Shown: piece after piece, positions 6,040-61,735 of the stretch
How the letters are laid out: each line of letters starts with the position of its first letter
How positions within the stretch are numbered: the first letter of the stretch is position 1
Assembly (NCBI GenBank): GCA_963830655.1
Contig: CAWHND010000011.1
Location: forward strand, 28,505 to 92,504
Direction of reading: 5' to 3'
DNA length: 64,000 nucleotides
Origin: an uncultured Actinomycetota bacterium
GTDB taxonomy: Bacteria; Actinomycetota; Actinomycetes; Actinomycetales; Microbacteriaceae
Translations under genes and position numbers: made by a program
Notes under the pieces: generated by a model
Seen by the model: the letters and a program-made list of their open reading frames with translations, nothing else
Databases searched by the model: none
Told to the model about the DNA's origin: nothing

Positions 6040-8238
6040 CGGGTGTCACCTCGCCTACTGCAGGCGTTGCCACGGTCCCGCACGCGCCGGCGGGCACCGC
6101 GGCAACGGCTATTCGGCGTCGCGCGCGTCGAGCTCGTCCTGGACGGAGTCGCCGGGCGGCGAGCGCGCGCGACATTCCCAGGAAGAGCACCAGGATCACG
6201 ACGAGCACGAACGTCGCATTGATGACCAGCGGCACATTGATCGCGATGGGACCGGCGTAGACGACCGTCGCATCGTCGAGCGACTCCGGCGCGACTACCG
6301 CCTCGGTCGCGAGCCGCTTGTCCTCGGCGGAGAGCACCCTCGGAGCAGCGAGTGCCCGCGGAGCTGGGTCACCCGACGTCGTTTTCGCGGTCTGATCCGA
6401 TCCCGCTGGCGAAAGAGGTGCCAGGCGATGCCGCGGCTGAGGTCGATGCAGAGGCGTCTCCAGCGAGCTCGACCTGAGTGGGGCTCGAAGTCGGCGATGA
6501 GGTCGGCGTCGAGACGCGAGCTCGAAGATGGCGGCTCCGACCGTCGGCGCCACCGGGACGCTGGGGGTAACCGGATCGGTCGGTGTCGGATACGACTCGG
6601 TGTCGGATCGAGTCGGTGTCGGATCAACCGGTGTCGGATCAACCGGTGTCGGATAGACCGGCGTCGGATCAACCGGCGTCGGATCAACCGGCGTCGGATC
6701 GACTGAGCCTGCGGACATGAACTGCACGGCGTACTTGTGGGTCTCGTTGTAGTCCGCGAACCGCCATCCACGCGCTGACCCTCGACGGCCTTCACGCACT
6801 CGATGTAGCGCGAGGACGATCTTGGAGTCGGCGGCGCCGTAGCCGTCGGCAACTGCCCGGATGCGCTCGAGCATCGCGTCGCGATCACTGGTTGCGAAGA
6901 TCCGGTCGAGGTCGGCGGAGGTCGACGCCCGCAGGATCAGCGCGGAGAACTTTCCGGCAGCAGTCTCGATGGGCTTCTGCCCGCGGCGGGCTGCGCTCTC
7001 GCCGGGTTGAGCCGACGCGGAGGGCTCGGAGGCATCAGCAGCACTCGCAGCCGCTCAGCGGCCGGCTCAGCAGCAGCCGGCTCAGCAGCAGCCGACTCAG
7101 CGGGCTTCGGATCGGCTCGGTGATACGCGCATCCAGCGCATGCCACTCGAGGCTCAGGTAGAGGCTCAGCACCGTGAGGTCCAGCGCCCTGAAGTCTTCC
7201 GATTCCTCCTTCGGGGTGTATCCGAGGTCATCGAACGCGGTGCGGCAGGCGCGAACGGCCCAGCTCGCGGCCGTGTAGACGGCCCCGTTCTGCGCCTGGT
7301 CGGACGCGACGATCTGCCCGTCCACGACGTAGCGTGCCACGATCTTGTCAGCGAGCTCAGCGCCCCTGTCCGCGTCGAGGCCGTTGACTCGGCGTTCGCT
7401 GTCGAGCTCGACGACGCAACGGTCGACGACCTGCTCTGCGTCTGCCGGCTGCTCGGATACCCCCGCCTGAATGGCCGCGAGGTCCGCGACGATGAGGCCT
7501 CGAGCCTCTGGAGACATGCCGAACAGTTCCCTGCGCACCTCGTCCGGCTGCGCGAAGGCGTACAGCACCTCGGAGGCGAACTGCTCCTGCAGCGCCCTCG
7601 GCCTTGAGCCTGTCATAGGCCTCGCGCTGCTCGGCCGAGAGCAGGCTGAGCGCCTTCTCGAGCCGCGCAGCACTCTCCGAAGCGCCAGGCCCCTGCTGGG
7701 CACGCAGCTCGTCGACGGACGCGGCGCGCTCCGCGATCTGCTCGGCGAGCAGCCGATCGCGAACCGTCTCATCGGCGAAGGTCACAGCGAAGACGAGGTC
7801 GTCCTCCGCTGCGGTCCGCTCGGCCTCATCGAAGCTCTGGATCTTCTCGGCCTGCGCGGGATCCAGCCATCCGTAGGCCTGCTTGAGCGCCTCCCCATAC
7901 TCGGCCTCGGTCAGTTGCGCTGACGGGTCGGCGGGCACGGGCGCGACGACGGGAGCGCCGCGTTCGGCGGCCTCGAGGTAGATGCGCCAGGACTCGGCCC
8001 GGTACTTCACCGCGGTGAGGTCGCCCGTGTAGCTGCTCGACGAGAGAGCTGAAGCAGCTCTCGGACTCCCATCCGACCTCCGCAGCGGATGCGGGGGCGA
8101 GCGGCGCGAAGGCGATGACGGCGCCGGCGAACAGCGAGACGGCCAGTGCGCCGGCGCCAGTCCTACTCGCGAAGGCGCTATGGGCCGGGGCGCCGTGGCG
8201 TGCGCTGCGGTGCCGAGCTGCGCCGGTTCGATCGGCAT
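6040..8238 (-). CDS. Large putative secreted/surface-anchored protein (frameshifted; ends approximate)
   Basis: Signal-peptide-like ALAVSLFAGAVIAFAPLAPASA, helical acidic core, (DPTPV)n linker, C-terminal TM followed by an Arg-rich tail, spread over several frames. Confidence 0.55.
6582..6702. repeat. 15-bp coding tandem repeat (DPTPV)
   Basis: ggtgtcggatcaacc / ggcgtcggatcaacc repeated about 7 times. Confidence 0.85.
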
Positions 8239-18449: not shown

Positions 18450-18581
18450 TGCACCGATCCGGACAAATTGCACGGATCCGGAGAAATTGCACGGATCCGG
18501 ACCGGATCGCCGATTGCCCCGAATCAGCCGCATGAATCGGCCCACCGATCCGGATCCGCAACAATTCTCCGGATCCGTGCA
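18450..18581. repeat. Hairpin element built of 19-bp subunits
   Basis: tgcacggatccggagaaat three times, then inverted attctccggatccgtgca. Confidence 0.8.
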
Positions 18582-23198: not shown

Positions 23199-23303
23199 CT
23201 CGGCCACCTTTCCGCCGGCTCGGCCACCCTTTGCTCCCGACGGCCACCTTTCGGGACGTTCGGCCACCTTTCGAAGGGTGGCCGAACGTCCCGAAAGGTG
23301 GCC
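23199..23303. repeat. Left hairpin, repeat family A
   Basis: 20-bp periodic ggccaccttt subunits; near-perfect palindrome at 23242-23303. Confidence 0.9.
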
Positions 23304-23419
23304 AAGCGATTTTCTGGATCGCAACGCCAGCATGCGTCCACAGGTCCAGGTCCGAACCAACTCTGCACAGATCGCTCGGGAAGCCGTTCTCCCCGCGAGC
23401 CATTCGCGACGATCTCCCG

Positions 23420-24370
23420 ATGGATATCGCGCTCGACCGATTGCTCGAAGCCAACAGCGGCCTCCTGCTGTCGAAGGACCTCATGGCCATGGGAGCTCCC
23501 AAAGCCCTCATCGCCGATCTCGTTCGATCTGGAGCACTCGTCCGGGTGAGACGAGGCGCGTTTGCTTCTGGAGCGGCATGGACGGCAGCGACTCCCGAAG
23601 CAAGGCATCGGATGCTTGTCCGAGCCACTGACTGTCTTCATCCCTCTGACCTGGTCTTCTCCCACTTCGCAGCAGCCGCAGTGCATCGACTGCCGCTTAT
23701 CGGACCGTGGCCGTCGCGCGTACATGTTCTCGACTCGACGGCCAGAGGCGGGAGCTCCATGCCCTCGCTCTTCGTACATCGAACGACCGAGAGTCGCGAG
23801 AACGTCCTCGTCGATGGATTGAGGGTCACCAGCCTTGCTCGCACGCTTGTCGACATCGGCTGCGCGGCGCCGTTCCTTCAGGCTGTCGCCATGATCGATG
23901 TGGCCATGAGACGAGGCGTCACGGCGGAGTCGCTGCTCGAGGAACTGGCCTATGTCCAGCCAGGCCGTGGAGGCAGACGAGCGGCACGTGCGATCAGCTT
24001 CGGCGACGGCCGCAGCGAGAGCGTAGGCGAATCGTTGAGCCGGGTGCGGATGTGGGAGTTGGGCTTCGTGGTGCCGGAGCTGCAGGTGGAGTTCACCGCT
24101 GTCCACGGCCCCCGCTCTTTCGTCGACTTCTTCTGGCCGCGAGGTCGGATCGTCGGCGAGTTCGACGGACGCGACAAGTACCGCAATCCGCTGATCACCG
24201 ACGGACGATCGACGGGAGACATCGTCCTCGCCGAGAAGGATCGAGAGGATCGCATCCGGCCACAGGTGCAGAGATTCATCCGTTGGGGTTGGAACGCCGC
24301 GTGGGATGGCCCTCGCTTCGGGAACTACCTTCGGTCGCACTCCGTGCCCATGCGCTCGGCCACCTTTTAG
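23420..24370 (+). CDS. AbiEi-like N-terminal domain plus PD-(D/E)XK / DUF559-like nuclease domain protein
   Basis: LVRVRRGAF, FSHFAAAAVH, VTSLARTLVD, SESVGESLSR, VDFFW, GEFDG. Confidence 0.8.
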   Translation: MDIALDRLLEANSGLLLSKDLMAMGAPKALIADLVRSGALVRVRRGAFASGAAWTAATPEARHRMLVRATDCLHPSDLVFSHFAAAAVHRLPLIGPWPSRVHVLDSTARGGSSMPSLFVHRTTESRENVLVDGLRVTSLARTLVDIGCAAPFLQAVAMIDVAMRRGVTAESLLEELAYVQPGRGGRRAARAISFGDGRSESVGESLSRVRMWELGFVVPELQVEFTAVHGPRSFVDFFWPRGRIVGEFDGRDKYRNPLITDGRSTGDIVLAEKDREDRIRPQVQRFIRWGWNAAWDGPRFGNYLRSHSVPMRSATF

Positions 24371-30257: not shown

Positions 30258-30810
30258 ATGACCCTGAACATCGGCAATCGCCCCCCGAGTTTCAGTCTCC
30301 CCGCCGCCGGCGGTGGGCACGCGCTCTTCGAACCCGGTGACGGGATCACCCTGGTGGTTTTCACCTGCAACCACTGCCCGTACGCTCGCGCCTGGCACGA
30401 GCGGATCCAGAAGGTCGCCCAGGACTACACGGGCCGAGTGACCGTGCTCCAGATCAATTCCAACGATGCGAGCCGTCAGCCGCTCGACTCGTTCGAATCG
30501 ATGGAAGCGCGAGAGGCGGGCGGCGACTTCTCCTCCCCCTACCTGCACGACGAGGACCAGTCGGTGGCCAAGGCATGGGACGCGATGGTCACCCCTGACG
30601 TCTTCATCATCGACGCCGAGGGCGAGCTGGCATATCACGGCGCCCCCGATGGCTCGCTACGACGACGACTCTGCCAACGCGGAATGGATCAGGGCCGCAC
30701 TCGACGACCTGATCGCCGGTCGCCGGGTGTCGGAGCCGGTCACGAGCCCCAAAGGCTGCGGCATCAAATGGAAGCAGGCGAGCGGCCTCACCATCGGAAG
30801 CCGCCCGTAG
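30258..30810 (+). CDS. Thioredoxin-fold AhpC/TSA family protein (frameshifted)
   Basis: FTCNHCPY, INSND, TPDVF, GCGIKW. Confidence 0.88.
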
Positions 30811-30815
30811 AACGG

Positions 30816-31300
30816 CGAGGGCCTCGATAGACCGCCACCTCGCTGGTCGAGCAGGTGCGCGAGGGCCTCGATACGCGCCGTAAACGGCGCTACTCGACCA
30901 ACGAAAGACCGCCACCCCGCAGGTCGAGAAGGCGCACGAGGGCCTCGATACGCGCCGTAAACGGCGCTACTCGACCAACGAAAGACCGCCGACCCGCTGG
31001 TCGGGAAGGCGCACGAGGGCCTCGATACGCGCCGCAGACGGCGCTACTCGACCAACGAAAGACCGCCACCCCGCAGGTCGAGAAGGCGCACGAGGGCCTC
31101 GATACGCGCCGCAGACGGCGCTACTCGACCAACGAAAGACCGCCACCCCGCAGGTCGAGAAGGCGCAGCGAGGGCCTCGATACGCGCCGCAGACGGCGCT
31201 ACTCGACCAACGAAAGACCGCCACCCCGCTGGTCGAGTAGGTCGCGCAGCGACCGTATCGAGGCCCTCGACCACAAGCGCCTCGATACGCGCCGCAGGAC
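30816..31300. repeat. 77-bp tandem array of REP-like hairpin units (5 full units plus partials)
   Basis: Unit starts cgagggcctcgatacgcgccg at 30860, 30937, 31014, 31091, 31169. Confidence 0.92.
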
Positions 31301-49067: not shown

Positions 49068-49133
49068 CGAACACTGTCGTGCGGACAGAACACTGCCGCC
49101 TACGGACGTGTTCTGTCCGCAGGAGAGTGTTCG
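49068..49133. repeat. Long imperfect inverted repeat
   Basis: cgaacactgtcgtgcggacagaacac / gtgttctgtccgcaggagagtgttcg. Confidence 0.75.
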
Positions 49134-52928: not shown

Positions 52929-53426
52929 GCGACCAGAAGGGCGGGATCCTGCGCGGCTTCCGCGAGTTCATCCTGCGCGGCAACGTCATCGATCTGGCCG
53001 TCGCCGTGGTCATCGGCACGGCCTTCACCGCCATCGTCACGGCCATCGTCAGCTCCATCATCAATCCGCTGATCGGGGCGCTCTTCAACGCGGAGAGCCT
53101 CAGCACGCGCGCTCATCGTCAGCATCCCGACCACGAGTGGCGGCACCGCCAAGATCATGTTCGGCGCCGCGCTCGCAGCGGTGCTCAACTTCGTGATCGT
53201 CGCGGCGGTCGTCTACTTCGCGATCGTGCTGCCCGTCAACCACTTCGCGAAGCTGGCGTTCGCCAAGCAGAAGGCCGTTCCCGAGGCCACGCCCGAGCAC
53301 CTGCCGCCGACCTCGGAGGAGCTGCTCACCGAGATCCGCGACCTGCTCGCCGCGCAGGCGGACTCGAACCTCCGCTCGACCGCCGGCAAGCACGGCACCG
53401 GCGCGATCACCCTTCCCAAGGCCTGA
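52925..53426 (+). CDS. mscL: Large-conductance mechanosensitive channel (frameshifted)
   Basis: [29 protein letters not shown]. Confidence 0.94.
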
Positions 53427-53442
53427 TCCCGGATGTAGTGAT

Positions 53443-53499
53443 CGAGAAGCCGAAAACTGCGGGTATCGCCGACTGATTCCCGCACTTTTCGGCTTTTCG
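53443..53499. repeat. Inverted repeat between convergent genes
   Basis: cgagaagccgaaaactgcggg / cccgcacttttcggcttttcg. Confidence 0.7.
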
Positions 53500-53511
53500 C
53501 CGAGGCCTGAA

Positions 53512-53733
53512 TCAGTAGTGCGGCGGCTTGTCCGCCTTGAGGCGGTCGTCGTTCGGACCGGTCGCATCGCCCCAGCGCCGCTCGTCGTCCTCGGACGAGA
53601 GCACTGGGCGGGCCGCCTGCGGCGTCGGGTCGGATCCGGGCGCCGGCGGGGTGGTCACCCGGCGCGGAACCGGGGGCGGCGCTGCTGTTCGCTCATGACC
53701 TGACGACCCTACCGGCGCAGTCCGCTCGGACAC
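53512..53733 (-). CDS. Small conserved hypothetical protein
   Basis: C-terminal WGD...NDDRLKADKPPHY. Confidence 0.65.
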   Translation of the reverse strand: MSERTAPVGSSGHERTAAPPPVPRRVTTPPAPGSDPTPQAARPVLSSEDDERRWGDATGPNDDRLKADKPPHY

Positions 53734-53821
53734 GGACGAGGAACAGCTGGAACCGCCCGGTTCCGCCGCCGGGAACTCGAGGCAGGCGGCCGCACCGGAC
53801 AGTTCGACGGGGCGAACGCGC

Positions 53822-56800
53822 TCAGTCGCCGTCGATCACGGGAATCGCCTGCGTGTGCGGCTCCAGGTGCTCGAGCTCCCAGCGCGACGGCGATCTTCAG
53901 CGCGACGGATTCGGGGTCGGCGAACAGCTCGAAGCTGTGCACGCGCAGGTAGTGCCAGCCGAGGCGCTTGAGCATCTCGGGACGCAGCCGCAGCGATTCG
54001 CGCAGGCTCGAGCTCTGCGACCGTCGCGTCGGTCTCGATCGCGACGCACGGCCCTCGTAGGACGCGACGAGCCCGAGCGTCCCGCGGTAGTCGAGCGCCG
54101 TCGTGAGGCCGCGGGCGTCGAGCCGGCGGGACAGGTCGACGAGCATCGCATCGGCGTGCTCGACGTCGGAGGGATGCTCGGCGATCCGCTCTTCCGCGTC
54201 CTCCAGCAGCTCCGCCCGAGGGCGAGGACGCCGTGACGACATCCGGTCGGCCGTCGATGTCCTCGGGCCGGAAGCAGGAGAGCGATGACGAGGGAGCGGC
54301 GGGCGCGGGTCACGGCGGACGCGAGCAGACGCTCGCCGCCCGGCTTGCCGAGCGCGCCGAAGTTGGAGAGCATCCGGCCGTGCGGGGTGCGTCCGTAGCC
54401 GATGGAGAAGATGACCCGGTCGCGGCTCTGCGCCACCGCCTGCTCGAGCGTGGTCGACGAGGAACGGCTCCGCCTGCTCGCGCAGGAAGAAGTCGGTGAC
54501 CTCCATGCGCTTCGCGAACGGCGCGAGCACGGCCGGCCTGCACGCGGACGGCGTGCTTCTGGGCTGCGGTGACGACCATCAGCGACTCGCGCGGGCCGGG
54601 TGAGCGCGTGCTCGATGACGAGCTCGACGACCCGGGCGACCTCGGCATCGACGCTCTCGACGGCGCCGGTCTCGGGATCGGGCATGCCGTGGCCGTCCTC
54701 GACGAAGTCGAGCGACGAGGCTGCCGCGACCGAGGAACGTGCCCGCCCAGGGCGTGGACGACGATCTTGCCGCCGTAGAAGCGACGGTTGACCAGCTCGG
54801 CGAGGTCCTCGCCGCCGGCGCGGTAGCTGCGGGTGAGGGTCGAGCGTCGGCAGCAGCTCGCCGAGGCGGGCGAGCGCCGAGTCGGCGTGCCGCGCGTCGA
54901 GCTCGACGCTGTCGACGTGGCTCGTCGACGTGCCGGCGCGGTGAGGTCCTCGACGGCGATGCTGAAGTCGTCCGGCGTCTCGGCGACCGGGTCGCCGAAC
55001 GCCACGATCTGCCTTGCGCGGCGGATGCCGCCGAGGCTCTCGGCCACGCTGACGGCTCCGGCATCGACCAGGAAGACCGCGTCGAACGGGATCTCGTCGG
55101 AGATGCGCGTGCACCTCGTAGGGCGAGGCCAGCCAGACCGGGGCGACGAGCGCGACAGGTGCGGCGCCGACGCGTAGAGCGATCCGGCATCGGCGTCGCT
55201 CGCTGCGCAGCAGGTTCTTGAGCGCGGTGGCCTCGTCGGGCCAGTCGACGAGGCCGATCTTCCAGGTCTCGGCGAGCGCCCAGGCCAGAGCGGCGGGCGG
55301 CGCCGGCGGCGTGGGCCTCGTCGACGAGCCGGAAGTCGGCCTCGAGCCGATCGAGCACGCGGGTGTTGGCGCCGAGCAGCGCGCGGTCCTCGGCGAGCAT
55401 CCGCTCGAGCACCGAGCTGCCACCAGGCGAGCTCGAGCTCGACGCCCACCCGATCCTCGGGGACGTGGCGGCGCGAGAGGTCGTCGAGCAGCGGATCGAG
55501 GTCGAGGTTGCGCAGATTGCCCAGGAGCGCGGTGCGCTCCTGCAGGTTCGTGAGCACCTCGGAGTCGGCGGCGAGCGCCGTGAGCTTGGCGACCAGCTGC
55601 CGATCGGGACGGTCAGCAGCGACTGCCGCCGTGGCCGTCCGGCCGAGCGGCGCGTCGAGCGACGCGAGGTCCTCGGCCACCCGCTGGTAGGCGACCTGGA
55701 CGTCGGCGATGCCGACCGGCACCTCGGGCGGTGACACCCGCGGCGACGAAGCGCTGCCAGAGCATGCGCTGCTGCTGGATGCGCACGAGCGACTCGTGCA
55801 GGTCGGCGACGTGCACGCCGGGACGCACGTACTCGCGGGCGAGCTTCTTGCAGCCGGCGGCGGTTGCCGCCGGACATCCTCGGCGATCGCGGCGCGATGC
55901 CGGTGGCCGCGATGAGCTCGCTGAGCGAGCGGTCGAAGACGGCGGGCTGGAAGCGGTCGAGCGTCTCGCGGATGTCGAGCAGCAGCCGCAGGTAGATGCC
56001 GAGCTCGGCGATGCGTCTCGAACGGCCGCATGCGGGTCGTGCCGACGAGCTCGCTCGGCGCGCTCGAGCAGGCGCGGCAGCTCGGTGTCGTTGAGGCGCT
56101 TCGCGAGTCTGGTGCGCGTTCTGCGCGGCGGCCGAGGTGGGGAAGTCGGCGCCGTACCAGGGCGAGTCGCCGGGGCCGTAGCGGAACTCGCCGAGGCTGG
56201 CCGCGCTTGATCAGGGTCTCTGCGGCGGCATCGCGATCGCGGGCGAGAGCGCTCGATGGCGCGGCGGCGTCGAGCCGCGAGGTGGTCGTGCGGAGGGTTG
56301 GGCAGCAGCGACAGGCGGGCGAGCTCGGCCAGCGCATCGAGCGCACCGAGACGCCGAGCACGGGGTCGCGGCCGAGCGAGCGCCGCGCGGTAGTCGAGCA
56401 GCACGCTGCGCAGGCGCACGAGGGCGTCGTCGACCTCGGCGACGTTGGGCTGGCTGGCCTTCTCGTTGCGGCTGATCGCCTGGATGACGTCGCGGCGCAC
56501 CGTGCGCGGCGAGACGGCGATGCCCTGCAGCCCGATGTCGGCCGAGGCGCGTGCTGACTGCGCGCAGGCTCGCGCGGCGCGGGCTGACGACGAGCACGCG
56601 CTTGTGCTGCGCGACGAGGCGCCGAGCGCGTTCACGATGGTCTGCGTGCCGCCCGTGCCCGGCAGCGTCTTGACGACGAGGGAGTTGCCGGCGGCGATCT
56701 GGGCGACCACGTTCTCCTGCTCGGAGTCGGCGTCGAGCAGCAGGGTGTCGGTGGCGGGAGGACGCTGATCCTGGTGGACGGGGTCGGCGGCCACGTAGGC

Positions 56801-57620
56801 CTCGCCGATCGACCAGCGCGCGGTCGGGTTGCCGGCGAGCGCGTCGAGCACCGGGTGCTCGAGCTTCGTCGGCGTCGCGCCAGCATCTTGGCGCGAGACC
56901 TCGGCGAACGAGGAGACGACCAGCCGCGGCTGCACGTTGAACCAGGCGAGCTGACTGGTGAGGGCGCGCAGCCGGTCGATGACCGGCTGCGGCTTGAACG
57001 AGCCGCCGCGAGGTGGCGAGCGCGACGAACGCGTCGGCGTCGAGGGTCACGCCGAACTGCTCGCGGAGCGCGCGGGCGAGTGCGGGGTTGAGGTACGGAG
57101 CGCCCTTCAGGCGCAGCTCGAAGTCCCGGCCGTACCGGCGCAGCGCGATCGGGCGCAGCAGGATCGGCGCGCGATACTCCTTCTTCGTCGTGCTCCACTC
57201 GGCGATGCCGATGCCGAGCTGGATCGAGTCGATGCCGCGAGTGGCGCTGAGTTCGACGCCCTTGGCGGTGATGTTCGAGGCGGCGACGGACGCGCTGCGG
57301 AAGGCGAGGTCGTCGCGGATCAGGCTGGAGAGCAGGGTCGTCTTGCCGGTGATGAACTGGGCGAGGCCGCCGGGGTGGGTCGTGCTCAGCTCGATGCGCA
57401 CGCGCGGGGAGTCGTCGAAGTGCAGCAGCGGCGACGGCCCGCCGAGTGCGGCGATCTGCTCGCGCCAGGTCTCCCAGACGGGCTCGGCGACGTTGACCGA
57501 CGGGACGCGTCCATCCCCTGTGCTCACCGAGACGGGAGAGGTCGAATTGCTCAGCGGGTGCACGGGAACGGTGTCCGCGAGGTTCACCTCGTCACCCATT
57601 CGTCGATCTGCACGCCACAC
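53822..57620 (-). CDS. Large DUF4011/SF1-helicase-like protein with C-terminal REase-like domain (heavily frameshifted)
   Basis: SPLLHF, DADSEQ, LPGTGGTQT, LTRSYR, TRARRS, LGWHYLRV. Confidence 0.75.
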
Positions 57621-57717: not shown

Positions 57718-57779
57718 CGCGAGTTGACATTTGTGGTGGGTGCAGCGGCCCTAGAACCCACCACTACTGCCAACTCACG
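57718..57779. repeat. Hairpin of repeat family B (contains the gene's TAG)
   Basis: cgcgagttgacatttgtggtgggt ... acccaccactactgccaactcacg. Confidence 0.9.
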
Positions 57780-58660
57780 TCGCCCAGGGCCTCCCTGACG
57801 CGTGCGATCAGCTTCCCTGAACGCGCCAGCAGGTGCTTGTCGACGCGGATGACGCGCCAGCCCTCCGCCATGATGGCATCCAGTCTGTCGACGTCGATGG
57901 CGAACTGTCGGTCATCGGTGCGGTGCTGCTCCCCGTCGTACTCGACGACCACGCGGGCAGCCCGGTACACGAGGTCGCCGTGGAAGACCCCCGTCCGAGT
58001 CTGAATGACCCCATTCACCTCAGGCTCGGCAAGACCCGCACGCACCAGGAGCAGACGAAGGACCGTTTCCTGGGCGGAATCGGTATCTGGACGAAGCTCG
58101 GATAGGGCGCTTCGAAGGCGAGATGCGCCGCGTTGACCCGCCACCCCGTCGACCGCCCGGGTGAGCCGATTCAGAGTCGCTCGCGGCGACTTGCGGGAAA
58201 GCAGACCGTCGCCCATCACGATGAGGTCTGTGATGGACAGCGTGGCACCGAGAGCGATCCACGTGTCGGTGGGTGCACTCACCCGCATCGATCCGCTGGT
58301 CACGACTGTCGGCACGGTGTCGACGCGATGCCCAACGATCCCCTCAGCACGAGGCGCTCGGCGTGGCTTCACCGACGTGACATGCAGAACGTCTTCCCGG
58401 AACCCTCGCGGCAGGCGCATCCGGAAGAGGGCTGCGGCCGTCGTGTGGCTGAAGAACTGATCCCCGCGCAACAGGGGCAGATACGCGCGAGCTCGCTCCA
58501 GCGTGGACTTCGGCTCAGCCGTGACTCGGACACCTCGATGAGGTGCCGCCAGATCTTTAGCGCGCAGACGGGACCGCGATGCTCCCAGTTCCGCTGCCGC
58601 ACCCACCGAGAATGCTGGACCCATGCCCTCGGGAAGATCGGATTTCTGCGACACGCGCAC
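57764..58660 (-). CDS. AbiEi-like plus DUF559 (Vsr-like) nuclease domain protein
   Basis: FSHTTAAAL, DSAQETVLR, GDLVY, VVEYDGEQH, GWRVIRV. Confidence 0.85.
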   Translation of the reverse strand: MRVSQKSDLPEGMGPAFSVGAAAELGASRSRLRAKDLAAPHRGVRVTAEPKSTLERARAYLPLLRGDQFFSHTTAAALFRMRLPRGFREDVLHVTSVKPRRAPRAEGIVGHRVDTVPTVVTSGSMRVSAPTDTWIALGATLSITDLIVMGDGLLSRKSPRATLNRLTRAVDGVAGQRGASRLRSALSELRPDTDSAQETVLRLLLVRAGLAEPEVNGVIQTRTGVFHGDLVYRAARVVVEYDGEQHRTDDRQFAIDVDRLDAIMAEGWRVIRVDKHLLARSGKLIARVREALGDVSWQ

Positions 58661-58730
58661 ATCGTGGGCGAGCCGACCATCTCGTGCGGGTTACCCACAG
58701 CCCATGTGACTTACTCACAAGCTCGGCGTT

Positions 58731-58791
58731 CGTGAGTTGACAGTTGTGGTGGGTGTGGACGTTCGCACACCCACCACGACTGTCAACTCAC
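58731..58791. repeat. Hairpin of repeat family B
   Basis: gtgagttgacagttgtggtgggtgtg ... cacacccaccacgactgtcaactcac. Confidence 0.9.
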
Positions 58792-59177
58792 TGGCGGAGG
58801 GAACGGAGGACCGCTACGGCGTCCTCGGCCCTCAGCTCGGGGACCAGGATGTGGTCGTGGAAGTGGCCGGCAAGGACATTGCAGCTGATGCCTGCTTCGG
58901 TGAGCACGCGGGAGAAGGCTGCCGTGAGGCCTACGCCCTCCAGCGCCGTGTGCACGTCGAGGGTGATCCAGGACAGGGTGAGCTCATATGCGAGGCCGTG
59001 GTCGTCGGCGTCCTGGCGGCGCAGGATGACGGTCGTTCCCTCCGCCTCGTGGATGGTCGCGAGCGCGGGAAGCTCACGCGCCGCGCGGGCATCAACGGTG
59101 ACGTAGACAACGGATTCCGGTCGCAGCTCCACCTCGAGCGAGGCGAGGATGGCGTCGAGATCGGTGAGTCCGCTCAT
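58788..59177 (-). CDS. ACT-domain protein (DUF2241-like)
   Basis: EAEGTT, ITLDVHTALEGVGLTA, ISCNVLAGHFHDH. Confidence 0.88.
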   Translation of the reverse strand: MSGLTDLDAILASLEVELRPESVVYVTVDARAARELPALATIHEAEGTTVILRRQDADDHGLAYELTLSWITLDVHTALEGVGLTAAFSRVLTEAGISCNVLAGHFHDHILVPELRAEDAVAVLRSLRQ

Positions 59178-59262: not shown

Positions 59263-60402
59263 TCATGACCTGTTGGCGTCGCGCTGTGGAAGCCAGACGC
59301 CCATAGTGACCGGCTGCAGGGTCGCGTCGACGGCGGCGCCCAGCTCGGCGGCGGCGGTGTGCGGATCCGCGTCGTTGCGCAGGCGTTCACCGAAGGCGTC
59401 GACCACTTTCTGAGCGCTGTATCGAGCACGGTCGAAACGGCGATCGACCAGCCTCTGGACCCTCCGGAGGACGGGGAGGAAGAGCGCGGCGGCAGCGAGG
59501 GTCGCCAGCGCTACAGAGACTGACGGCAGTTTCGGCAGGATCGCGGAGATCGCCACGACGACGAGTGCATACGCGCCGATCACCAGTGCGGTCACGACTG
59601 CGTACGAGAGGCCGCGAGAGATGATCCGGTCGATGTCGTACAGCCGGAATCGAAGCACTGCGATGGTGATGGCGATGGGGAGGAAGGCTACGGCTACGGC
59701 AATGCCGATCTGAACCACGGGGCTCGCGTAGTACGCGGCAACGGCGAATGGAGTGACGATCACGAAGAGTGCCGTGGCGAACGCGACCCACTTCAGCTGC
59801 TGCCGCTCGGTCTGACCTCCCACACGATACCGAGAGGCGAGCGCTGCCACCGCAGAGATGAAGCTCACGACGATGAGCAGCTGGGTGCCGGCGGTGATCA
59901 CGTCCGCGACGGGGCCATCCACAGCGATCGGGTTGGGCCCATCGCTGCCTGGTCGCCGCACGGAGTGGCTGAACGCCGATGCGACTGGACTCAGCAGCAC
60001 ATCCGCCGCAGCGAGCCAGAAGGGGAAGCGCCAGCGCCGAGAGGGGATCACGCCCGTCGGGAAGATCATCAGCAGAACCGGCAACATCCCGATCATTGCA
60101 AAGGGCAGGGACGTCGCCGACCAGCCCGCGACGTCCGATGCCGGAAGCTCGGGTCGCTGCCCCCATCCCTCCAACACGTTGATGAGGCTGCACATCAACG
60201 CGATCACGATCATGATCCAGCCGATGGGATTTCGTTTCACCTTCACCGCCACAAGCGTTCCCGTCACAGCGAATGCGGCCGCGACCAGCGTGTACGTGAC
60301 GGTGTTGTAGATCGGCTCCTCCCCGAGCGACAGCGGCACCGACGCTATTGTTGCGGCCAGCGCCGTCGCGCCGAGCACTACCGCCAACAGTTGGGGCTTC
60401 AT
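59263..60402 (-). CDS. Multi-TM sensor-like membrane protein, paralog 1
   Basis: RNPIGW, FPTG..PSRRWR, RQQLKW, RLYDIDRII, VDRRFDRARY; no kinase domain. Confidence 0.8.
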   Translation of the reverse strand: MKPQLLAVVLGATALAATIASVPLSLGEEPIYNTVTYTLVAAAFAVTGTLVAVKVKRNPIGWIMIVIALMCSLINVLEGWGQRPELPASDVAGWSATSLPFAMIGMLPVLLMIFPTGVIPSRRWRFPFWLAAADVLLSPVASAFSHSVRRPGSDGPNPIAVDGPVADVITAGTQLLIVVSFISAVAALASRYRVGGQTERQQLKWVAFATALFVIVTPFAVAAYYASPVVQIGIAVAVAFLPIAITIAVLRFRLYDIDRIISRGLSYAVVTALVIGAYALVVVAISAILPKLPSVSVALATLAAAALFLPVLRRVQRLVDRRFDRARYSAQKVVDAFGERLRNDADPHTAAAELGAAVDATLQPVTMGVWLPQRDANRS

Positions 60403-60457
60403 GACGCGATCGGGCCCACGAACGGCCGATCCGTCGCTCCAGGAGCAGCGGTGCACG

Positions 60458-61735
60458 TCATGCCCTTCTCACGTCCAACGATTCGCCGCTATCGGCAATC
60501 CACAGCCCCAACGCTGTCGGCTGGAGGGTGGCCTCGACGGCGGCGCCGAGGTCCGCCGCCGCGGTGTGGGGATCTGCGCCGTTGCGCAGCCGCTCGCCGA
60601 ACGCGTCGACGACCTTCGCCTGGTCGTACCGGGCGCGGTCGAAGCGCCGATCGACGATGCGCTGCACGCCACGGAGGACAGGAAGGAACAGTGCCGCCGC
60701 CGCCAACGTCGCAAGCGCCACCGCGACAGAAGGCAGGCTGGGCAGGACCGCGGTGATCCCGACCACGACGAGCGCGTAGGTGCCGACCACGACGAGCGTC
60801 ACGATTGCATACGACGCGGTGCGCGAGATGATCCGGTCGATGTCATACAGGCGGTAGCGAAGAACGGCTACCACGACGGCGACGGGGATGAGTGCATAAC
60901 CCAGCAGGATCCAGCTCTGGACTGCCTCCCAGCCGGGCACCCAGGAGAGGATCAGCACTCCGACTGCGAAGGCCACGGCGAAGAAGACCCATCGAAGCTG
61001 CGCGGCCTTGACGGCATCCGCACGCCGATATCGGACGAAGAGTGAGAGTGCGGAGCCCCCGAAGGACGCCAGCATCGTCGCGAAGCAGGCGAATGTGAGC
61101 AGCTGCCCGACATCGGAATCCCCGACGTGAATCGGGTTGGCGACGCCGGGAAAGACCTCGACACTCACGGTCGCGAAGACGCAGGTGGTCAGCACGAGCG
61201 TCAATACGGTGAATCGTGAGAACCACCGCCAGCGCCTGGAAGGAAGGCGTCCATCGGGAAAGCGCAGCGGGATCTGACTGAGCAGCAGCCAGACCGGCGG
61301 GATCCAGGCCCATGTGTCCTCGCGATCGTGGCCGTACCACAGCAGCCAGGCCGCCGCATCGGGCGCTGTCGCCAGCACCGCCTGTCCCACCAGGTCGACA
61401 GGCGGTCCAGAGCAGAAGAACCCCGGAACGGCGAGGAGCAGCCAGCCGAGCGGGTGGCCCGGCCGCTTCCAGGCGAGAAGCCACCCGACGACGATCAAGA
61501 TGGCGAGCAGGAGAAGGTAGGGCACCGCACTGAAACCGAACCCCGTGGCCTGGATTCCGACGATCGCAGTGACGACGAAGGCAGCGAGGATGAGCACGGT
61601 GAGCGCGTGCGCGAGCCACTGCGGACCGACCGAGTCATCCCGCATGGCCTCCCGCCCATGGCGCGACTCGCCGTCGAGGTTCATGAGCCCACGACCTGAG
61701 CCGGCGTCGGCCCTGGCTTCGACCTCTGCGGTCAT
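60458..61735 (-). CDS. Multi-TM sensor-like membrane protein, paralog 2
   Basis: HPLGW, FPDGRLPSRRWR, QLRW, RLYDIDRII, VDRRFDRARY. Confidence 0.8.
   Translation of the reverse strand: MTAEVEARADAGSGRGLMNLDGESRHGREAMRDDSVGPQWLAHALTVLILAAFVVTAIVGIQATGFGFSAVPYLLLLAILIVVGWLLAWKRPGHPLGWLLLAVPGFFCSGPPVDLVGQAVLATAPDAAAWLLWYGHDREDTWAWIPPVWLLLSQIPLRFPDGRLPSRRWRWFSRFTVLTLVLTTCVFATVSVEVFPGVANPIHVGDSDVGQLLTFACFATMLASFGGSALSLFVRYRRADAVKAAQLRWVFFAVAFAVGVLILSWVPGWEAVQSWILLGYALIPVAVVVAVLRYRLYDIDRIISRTASYAIVTLVVVGTYALVVVGITAVLPSLPSVAVALATLAAAALFLPVLRGVQRIVDRRFDRARYDQAKVVDAFGERLRNGADPHTAAADLGAAVEATLQPTALGLWIADSGESLDVRRA

Follow-up and report, generated by a model that had tools for sequence, protein, structure and literature searches.

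We found that a nuclease-like gene (gene B) in the window, which is the whole 64-kb stretch of DNA analyzed here, lies between two copies of its own inverted repeat and behind a promoter box that also precedes DNA-uptake genes. This stretch comes from a 2.42-Mb genome that is 55% complete and whose organism is closely related to Naasia lichenicola, a species used here for comparison. Our preferred reading, to which we give about an even chance (0.5), is that the locus encodes a competence-induced, repeat-specific nuclease; it draws on the fold of the protein, the geometry of the repeats, the active site and the promoter motif.

Gene B, its product and the flanking elements

The features of the locus are listed in Table 1. 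In its longer reading, the open reading frame of gene B (57764-58660, reverse strand) encodes 298 aa from GTG 58660 and contains all the motifs that an earlier annotation, made from the DNA letters and here called the sequence-only reading, had quoted for it: FSHTTAAAL (70), DSAQETVLR (194), GDLVY (228), EYDGEQH (240) and GWRVIRV (267). The true start is likely the second GTG, which follows the -10-like hexamer. The gene is free-standing and intergenic, with the ACT-domain gene and a helicase gene as neighbors, and homologous loci have unrelated neighbors. The ACT-domain gene probably stands outside the nuclease-element system.

Table 1. Positions of the features at locus B in the window
Feature	Position	Strand	Remarks
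Gene B, predicted AbiEi-fold plus Vsr/EDxHD (DUF559) nuclease	57764..58654	-	296 aa from likely leaderless GTG
Neighboring ACT-domain gene	58788..59177	-	Pfam ACT_3/ACT_7; upstream neighbor in 3/3 orthologous loci
Proximal DnaA-box-like box TGTGGGTAA	58691..58699	-	1 mismatch to TGTGGATAA; 24 nt upstream of -10 hexamer
Distal box TGTGAGTAA	58711..58719	-	Same direction, 20 bp upstream of proximal box; two-box layout in both orthologues
-10-like hexamer CACGAT	58661..58666	-	6 nt before GTG 58654; presumed leaderless start
Downstream family-B element	57721..57776	.	56 bp; two inverted 21-bp arms and 14-bp free spacer; holds gene B stop
Upstream family-B element	58734..58789	.	Geometry as downstream element; terminal TGA is ACT gene stop

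Pfam gave a DUF559 match in residues 219-278 of protein B, and the structure model had a pLDDT of 95.7. Residues 5-190 of the model matched AbiEi (6y8q; Z 11.6, rmsd 5.9, 173 aligned; Foldseek E 5e-4) and also Rv2827c (1zel), while residues 196-296 matched I-Bth0305I (3r3p; Z 11.9, rmsd 2.6, 93 aligned), and the C-terminal residues (about 193-296) also matched Vsr (1cw0, Z 10.1) and 3hrl. According to the model, protein B joins a predicted DNA-binding domain of AbiEi fold to a nuclease of the Vsr/EDxHD type. By sequence, protein B had no AbiEi profile match and nothing above the cut-off in PADLOC or NCBIfam, and a search of solved structures returned only 3hrl and PvuRts1I, both weakly. The N-terminal domain is basic (31 K/R vs 17 D/E). 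S195, E198, D229, E240, H246, D256 and R259 were invariant in 114 homologues, and the putative nuclease active site appears intact. Judged by spacing only, D229, H246 and D256 (17 and 10 residues apart) would be equivalent to D196, H213 and D222 of I-Bth0305I (17 and 9 apart). The dN/dS of gene B was 0.074/0.41, with a dS that resembles that of neighboring genes, and by this measure the protein is under purifying selection.

The sequence-only reading had described two hairpins around gene B, and two inverted repeats of 56 bp each are indeed present. Both begin with GAG and end with CTC; their arms are identical at 39 of 42 positions and their spacers at 4 of 14. The family-B elements fold strongly (z-scores of -3.1 to -8.8), and none of 200 shuffled sequences folded as well. 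Stop codons had also been placed within the repeats, which is the case at this locus: the TAG of gene B (57764-66) lies within the downstream element, and the TGA of the ACT gene (58788-90) overlaps the outer end of the upstream element. The arrangement is not obligatory, since among 38 scored homologous loci the stop lies inside the element in 17 and just before it in 21. We regard the overlap as a by-product because two TGA triplets occur in the arm, the orthologue in N. lichenicola ends at another stop (a TGA whose position reads TGG in gene B) and the scored loci divide 17 to 21. The internal stop flagged in this orthologue is only two codons from the end, and its interpretation as a pseudogene was rejected.

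Family B had been set apart from the repeats of another cassette (family A), and the two showed no significant likeness, with a local score of 10 and a misfit of the A arms to the profile of the B-clade arms. Proteins A and B are related, as claimed, but only distantly (26% over 220 aa, E 5e-5). The view that family B is private to its cassette has to be softened. Although the family is distinct from family A, the source genome has a gene-less family-B copy at C12:266782 and a B-like one at C9:144390. The family-B arms are related to the arms of the next-closest protein clade, and the family grades into the element families of 55-60% identical relatives. Family B is, on these alignments, distinct rather than unrelated.

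The genome search that had been suggested for the family-B consensus returned the two flanking copies and one or two solo (gene-less) copies in the source genome; N. lichenicola has two and three, respectively, with one solo site common to both. N. lichenicola was the only species with the motif in the genome collection, and among 11 genus genomes family B was found only in two, both with the orthologue. The orthologue is 87% identical and lies at the same ACT-gene site between the same elements, and a 69% identical metagenomic homologue repeats the order of ACT gene, nuclease and helicase with family-B elements. The closest homologues therefore carry the same repeat at the same locus, whereas the sequence-only reading had named a lack of the hairpin in them as evidence against its proposal. 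The comparison of the interval between the ACT and helicase genes in relatives was less fruitful. Among the other genus genomes, no clean empty or single-repeat site was found; the region upstream of the helicase gene differs in every one of them, with the ACT gene elsewhere or not found, so that the interval is variable and offers no scar. Rfam gave only chance microRNA hairpin matches at locus B.

The helicase gene downstream (window 53000-57600) is frameshifted in the assembly, as are the C14 and C12 paralogues. Since the helicase gene and the C12 orthologue are open reading frames in N. lichenicola, many of these frame breaks are probably sequencing errors. After the ACT gene, the window has an accessory stretch with two tandem paralogous membrane-protein genes (59277-60783; 73% over 300 nt). 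The repeat scan of the window also returned other repeat families or arrays at 6599-6718, 18450-18581, 30748-31242 and 49068-49133.

Paralogues, repeat families and element geometry

The source genome has six close paralogues (B, C2, C3, C9, C12 and C14) in addition to several A-type genes. All six are flanked by their own element pair, and the six families are different. An independent scan found 14 solo copies for C12, 11 for C2, 6 for C9, 4 for C3, 2 for C14 and 1-2 for B; element copy numbers ranged from 1 to 35. Strong inverted repeats were present on both sides in 40 of 74 homologous loci and on one side in 20, and hold-out loci from other families had a repeat common to both flanks in 27 of 31 cases. 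The downstream repeat best matched its own upstream repeat in 24 of 27 loci, the three misses being close relatives.

Upstream and downstream copies within one cassette had an arm identity of 0.85. Between loci, arm identity was 0.32 at 30-40% protein identity, 0.50 at 55-60% and 0.88 above 80% (Mantel rho 0.17, p 0.0005, with related loci not independent). The arms of all families have a common scaffold, GA-n-n-T-G-n-C...G, and drift gradually with the protein. The scaffold positions are G1, A2, G6, C8 and G16; of these, 1, 2 and 6 served as anchors, unlike 8 and 16. A single arm is not a palindrome. As far as sequence comparison can tell, the pattern shows co-descent with continuing homogenization, among related loci that are not independent. 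The genomic tests agree with the protein-repeat specificity pairs proposed in the sequence-only reading, as each paralogue has its own family and downstream repeats mostly match their own partners best. Co-descent of a linked cassette explains part of this pairing. Nevertheless, a partnership between protein and element is very probable from these comparisons.

Some repeat families persist where no cognate gene was found. The C9 site of N. lichenicola is occupied by other genes and one C9-family element, and this species keeps about 10 C9 solos without a C9 gene. N. lichenicola yielded no elements of the C14 family, and two repeat families persist in it with no cognate gene found. An orphan family of 55 bp (arm GAATTGCCAC..TGGCTC) has about 16 copies in the source genome, for example at C1:221024 and C9:122490, and occurs also in N. 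lichenicola; no cognate gene was found in either genome.

We then considered the geometry of the elements. When elements were picked by arm sequence alone and the span was left free from 40 to 75 bp, 67 of 71 elements in the source genome were 55-56 bp long. The spacer is free in sequence, but its length varies by no more than 1 bp even between families with proteins less than 50% identical, which argues for two protein copies on duplex half-sites. Arm pairing was 0.885 inside an element and 0.871 for random arms of the same family (inner positions, 0.41 vs 0.44), the variable position 12 of family B paired at chance level, and there was no bias toward G:T over A:C mismatches (41 vs 56, p 0.15). 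A hairpin under selection for pairing was rejected, since neither covariation nor a wobble bias was seen. The term hairpin is probably the wrong physical picture of the elements, given their fixed span and lack of covariation. The elements are probably two sequence-defined half-sites at a fixed span of 55-56 bp, like AbiEi-type operators. For the AbiEi-family protein Rv2827c, the binding site consists of 23-bp inverted repeats separated by 13 bp (PMC7319586), and this 23 + 13 + 23 bp operator plan has the spacing of the 13-14 bp spacer found here. I-Bth0305I is a dimer that covers about 60 bp (PMC3239194), compared with the 55-56 bp of the elements; it draws its specificity from the central 14 bp, while in the present elements the center is free and the outer arms are conserved. 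A SsnA-like reading of the folded-stem sequence would be compatible with missing covariation, although a loop of constant length would then be unnecessary. The spacers of orthologous elements were 0.81 identical and the arms 0.89. Repeated cutting with error-prone repair at the element center was rejected, as the spacers are not hypervariable.

The cassettes are resident and seldom jump. Eight of the eight cassettes checked were syntenic between the source genome and N. lichenicola, and the locus B cassette was at the same site in three genomes. The family is rare on mobile DNA, with one phage record and, among plasmids, three records of 0.75-1.35 Mb. The site upstream of flbD is occupied by a different cassette in each of the two species (loci L056 and L016); these cassettes are 70% identical inside and 89-92% identical in the flanks and belong to different element families. 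Both cassette types recur at that site in metagenome contigs (L097 and L099), and the source genome retains solos of the element family whose flbD-site gene it no longer has. Whole cassettes have been swapped as alleles at this site.

Scorable solo sites were mostly common to both species, and several sites flagged as empty by the script were diverged copies on inspection. Four solo sites differ by 57-63 bp between the species, and these differences could be deletions. There was no consistent target-site duplication at filled and empty sites. At one orthologous intergenic site, N. lichenicola has a C2-family element (L150:801) and the source genome has an orphan-family element (C9:122490). Neither a transposase nor multiple recent copies were found, and an insertion sequence was rejected because the copies are single and syntenic, with no consistent target duplication and no recent multi-copy cassette.

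The promoter box and the DNA-uptake genes

Two DnaA-box-like 9-mers lie between the upstream element and the start of gene B, and the -10-like hexamer reads CACAAT and CACACT in the two orthologues. The box motif was found before 32 of 74 homologues, compared with 0.5% in shuffled sequences. At 49 of 72 loci, the box was 24-27 nt (forward) or 38-39 nt (reverse) from the -10, where 0.43 loci were expected. The same fixed distances were found at 21 of 31 hold-out loci (0.15 expected). The reverse spacing of 38 nt had been set beforehand and was then tested here. The copy at locus B has weaker promoter boxes and belongs to a family with 1-3 solos per genome.

A strict scan of the source genome returned nine forward-box promoters, five of which precede nuclease genes; the others precede tadA, flp, tadV and the cpaB/cpaE operon, in which the box lies before the first gene. 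The flp gene, which has no Pfam match, was assigned by its position before tadE and by sequence. The forward-box set of N. lichenicola was the same with one lipoprotein-like gene added. Among 24 matches inspected in other genus genomes, 15 preceded tadA, flp or a cpaB-operon gene (BLAST), two preceded tadE- or cpaB-like genes and seven had no assignment. In addition, comEA has a reverse box, TTATCCACG, at 38 nt from its -10. The yraN-dprA region of the source genome, whose assembly is error-prone, showed no box, and generic sigma-70 and terminator scans gave nothing at locus B.

The box sites of the tad, flp and cpaB-cpaE genes, the lipoprotein-like gene and comEA in the source genome are C1:126368, C1:122460, C4:6370, C2:332025, C1:169481 and the C3:84950 region. 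The C3 paralogue (C3:79440-80345) lies about 5 kb upstream of comEA-comEC. A-type (AbiEi_4) genes have reverse half-boxes, TCCACAG or TGCACAG, before their starts (window 23231-24370, C6:130121, C9:17185, C2:354613, C1:96519 and C13:33194). The promoter signal probably spans both the close-paralogue and the A-type subfamilies.

Transformation of M. luteus requires its tad clusters (PMC4322843), and its cpaB/cpaE operon has a link to the expression of com genes (PMC8467076). The actinobacterial competence regulator was unknown as of 2026 (PMC12849477). From the motif and its spacing, the nuclease genes are likely to be co-regulated with the DNA-uptake genes. The box matches a DnaA box, and the regulon could be linked to replication instead of competence proper. 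In the literature, with subscription journals mostly outside reach, we found no paper on the gene-repeat association or the promoter box, and none joining the cassette design with a competence-type box.

Proposed mechanism and comparison with known systems

In the preferred reading, locus B would be one member of a family of resident one-gene cassettes in the Micrococcales. The AbiEi-fold domain, judging from its fold, would read the approximately 21-bp arm of its own repeat, and two copies of the protein would occupy the inverted arms on duplex DNA, a geometry that would fix the 55-56 bp span. The Vsr/EDxHD domain, whose active site is apparently intact, would nick or cut in or beside the element. 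The promoter box shared with the Tad/Flp DNA-uptake genes would switch the nuclease gene on together with them, and a role during natural transformation is most likely because of this presumed co-expression. The nuclease would then act on element-bearing DNA and alter how frequently that DNA undergoes recombination. As by-products, gene-less elements would slowly spread and turn over, and whole cassettes would be exchanged as alleles. Transforming DNA enters the cell single-stranded. The fixed span and the competence link thus do not fit one simple substrate, since a single stem would form on the incoming strand and the length of its loop would be immaterial.

We consider it unlikely, though worth weighing, that protein B is a caretaker of the RAYT kind with no special role in transformation, which recognizes its repeat and from time to time duplicates or relocates gene-less elements while the box ties its expression to DnaA and replication. 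The box does match the DnaA consensus, and the indels of 57-63 bp at four sites and the one site with a different family would fit such movement. However, an HUH transposase rejoins DNA, which a Vsr-type hydrolase cannot do. The other promoters with the same layout are almost all those of Tad/Flp genes or comEA, and the solo sites that could be scored are mostly common to both species, although the population pattern as a whole (single resident genes, several families, a change of class at orthologous sites and repeats that outlive the gene) is that of RAYT/REP (PMC3686654). A somewhat more doubtful alternative is a single-strand cutter like Ssn, which would read the folded stem on incoming single-stranded DNA, cut beside it and so limit integration, with the fixed length left over from copying. 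In Neisseria, an SsnA gene has its own repeats on both sides and reduces transformation with DNA that carries them, and since both sequence and structure matter in SsnA, missing covariation permits a stem (PMC11893778). The strong folding of the elements and the competence-type promoter also suit this alternative. Against it, the spacer is fixed in length within 1 bp across families while free in sequence, whereas the Ssn loop is dispensable, and the elements have nothing like the tail that orients NTS on one side. Known AbiEi-fold and Vsr-fold proteins, moreover, act on duplex DNA.

That the cassette is a selfish, homing-like element seems improbable. Such a cassette would use transformation to spread or to avoid curing, its cuts making the locus recombinogenic or destroying incoming cassette-free alleles. 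The nuclease fold is that of the EDxHD homing endonuclease I-Bth0305I, many different chromosomal sites are occupied, the cassette upstream of flbD was replaced as a whole, and a single C9-family element was left where N. lichenicola lacks the C9 gene. A homing enzyme, however, cuts the allele that lacks the gene and leaves its own untouched, whereas here two intact sites are present on the gene-bearing allele and the genome tolerates dozens of solos; nor was a recent multi-copy cassette seen, and the dS is like that of neighboring genes. It is very improbable that the repeats are only autoregulatory operators or transcription terminators whose association with the gene is incidental. The upstream element lies 40-150 bp from the start, as AbiEi operators do, and many solos follow stop codons, but the downstream copy, the family-specific solos far from the cognate gene and the invariant nuclease site would all be left unexplained, and there is neither a terminator-like T-run nor selection for pairing.

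By analogy, the system would work like Ssn/SRM and RAYT/REP yet belong to neither, as the enzyme folds that define them were not found. With Ssn/SRM of Neisseria (SsnA, PMC11893778), it has in common a nuclease gene flanked by its own inverted repeat, repeats dispersed over the genome, homologue-specific repeat variants and a link to natural transformation, which here is the promoter link. Ssn is a single-domain GIY-YIG protein of about 100 aa that cuts single-stranded DNA at a hairpin of about 28 nt with an orienting tail (PMC11893778). In contrast, protein B is a 296-aa fusion of predicted AbiEi and Vsr domains, its element is symmetric with a fixed span, and the gene has a competence-type promoter of its own. 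Neither Pfam nor the structure model gave a small GIY-YIG nuclease. With RAYT/REP (REPtrons), REPINs and TIRtrons (PMC2817692, PMC3116915, PMC3686654 and PMC3733652), it has in common a resident single-copy enzyme gene under purifying selection between cognate dispersed repeats, several pairs per genome, a repeat class that can change at one locus and repeats that outlast the gene. A RAYT is an HUH/Y1 transposase, and a REP is a short hairpin with a GTAG-type foot in hundreds of copies. Here the enzyme is a predicted Vsr-type hydrolase, its confident model showing folds other than HUH/Y1, and the elements, in 1-35 copies, have non-palindromic arms and are not short self-palindromic REPs with a GTAG/CGTC foot.

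Type IV antitoxins such as AbiEi and Rv2827c resemble protein B in the fold of residues 5-190 and in their paired inverted half-sites of about 21-23 bp (PMC7319586 and PMC3985639). Unlike in AbiE toxin-antitoxin systems, no adjacent DUF1814 nucleotidyltransferase toxin gene was found at locus B or homologous loci, a nuclease domain is fused, and the sites lie on both sides of the gene and genome-wide. The C-terminal domain is Vsr-like, with the D/H/D residues, and shares its fold with I-Bth0305I and Vsr; unlike the gene of I-Bth0305I, gene B is not inside an intron or intein, and unlike Vsr, protein B has no methyltransferase partner.

More tentatively, at somewhat less than even odds, these genes may make up a large actinobacterial nuclease family in which each member has its own 55-bp target of two half-sites, belongs to the competence regulon and gates transformation by locus or lineage. 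If so, RAYT/REP and Ssn/SRM would be joined by a third system of repeat and enzyme that arose independently, and the family would provide a natural collection of long-site cutters that differ in specificity; the many half-sites of about 21 bp read on one scaffold could serve genome engineering if the family cuts. DUF559/AbiEi fusion genes, which abound in actinobacterial genomes under annotations no more specific than hypothetical or "very-short-patch", would each gain a predicted target in the flanking element, along with predictions of the geometry of binding and of when the gene is expressed. The system bears on two questions, the upkeep of dispersed palindromes in actinobacteria and the control of DNA uptake in the phylum. 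What this locus adds is a within-genome set of six pairs, a geometry test, an allele swap and a promoter link. The source genome also has other classes of inverted repeats with fixed spans, 11 at 51 bp and 5 at 46 bp, which may belong to other nuclease subfamilies.
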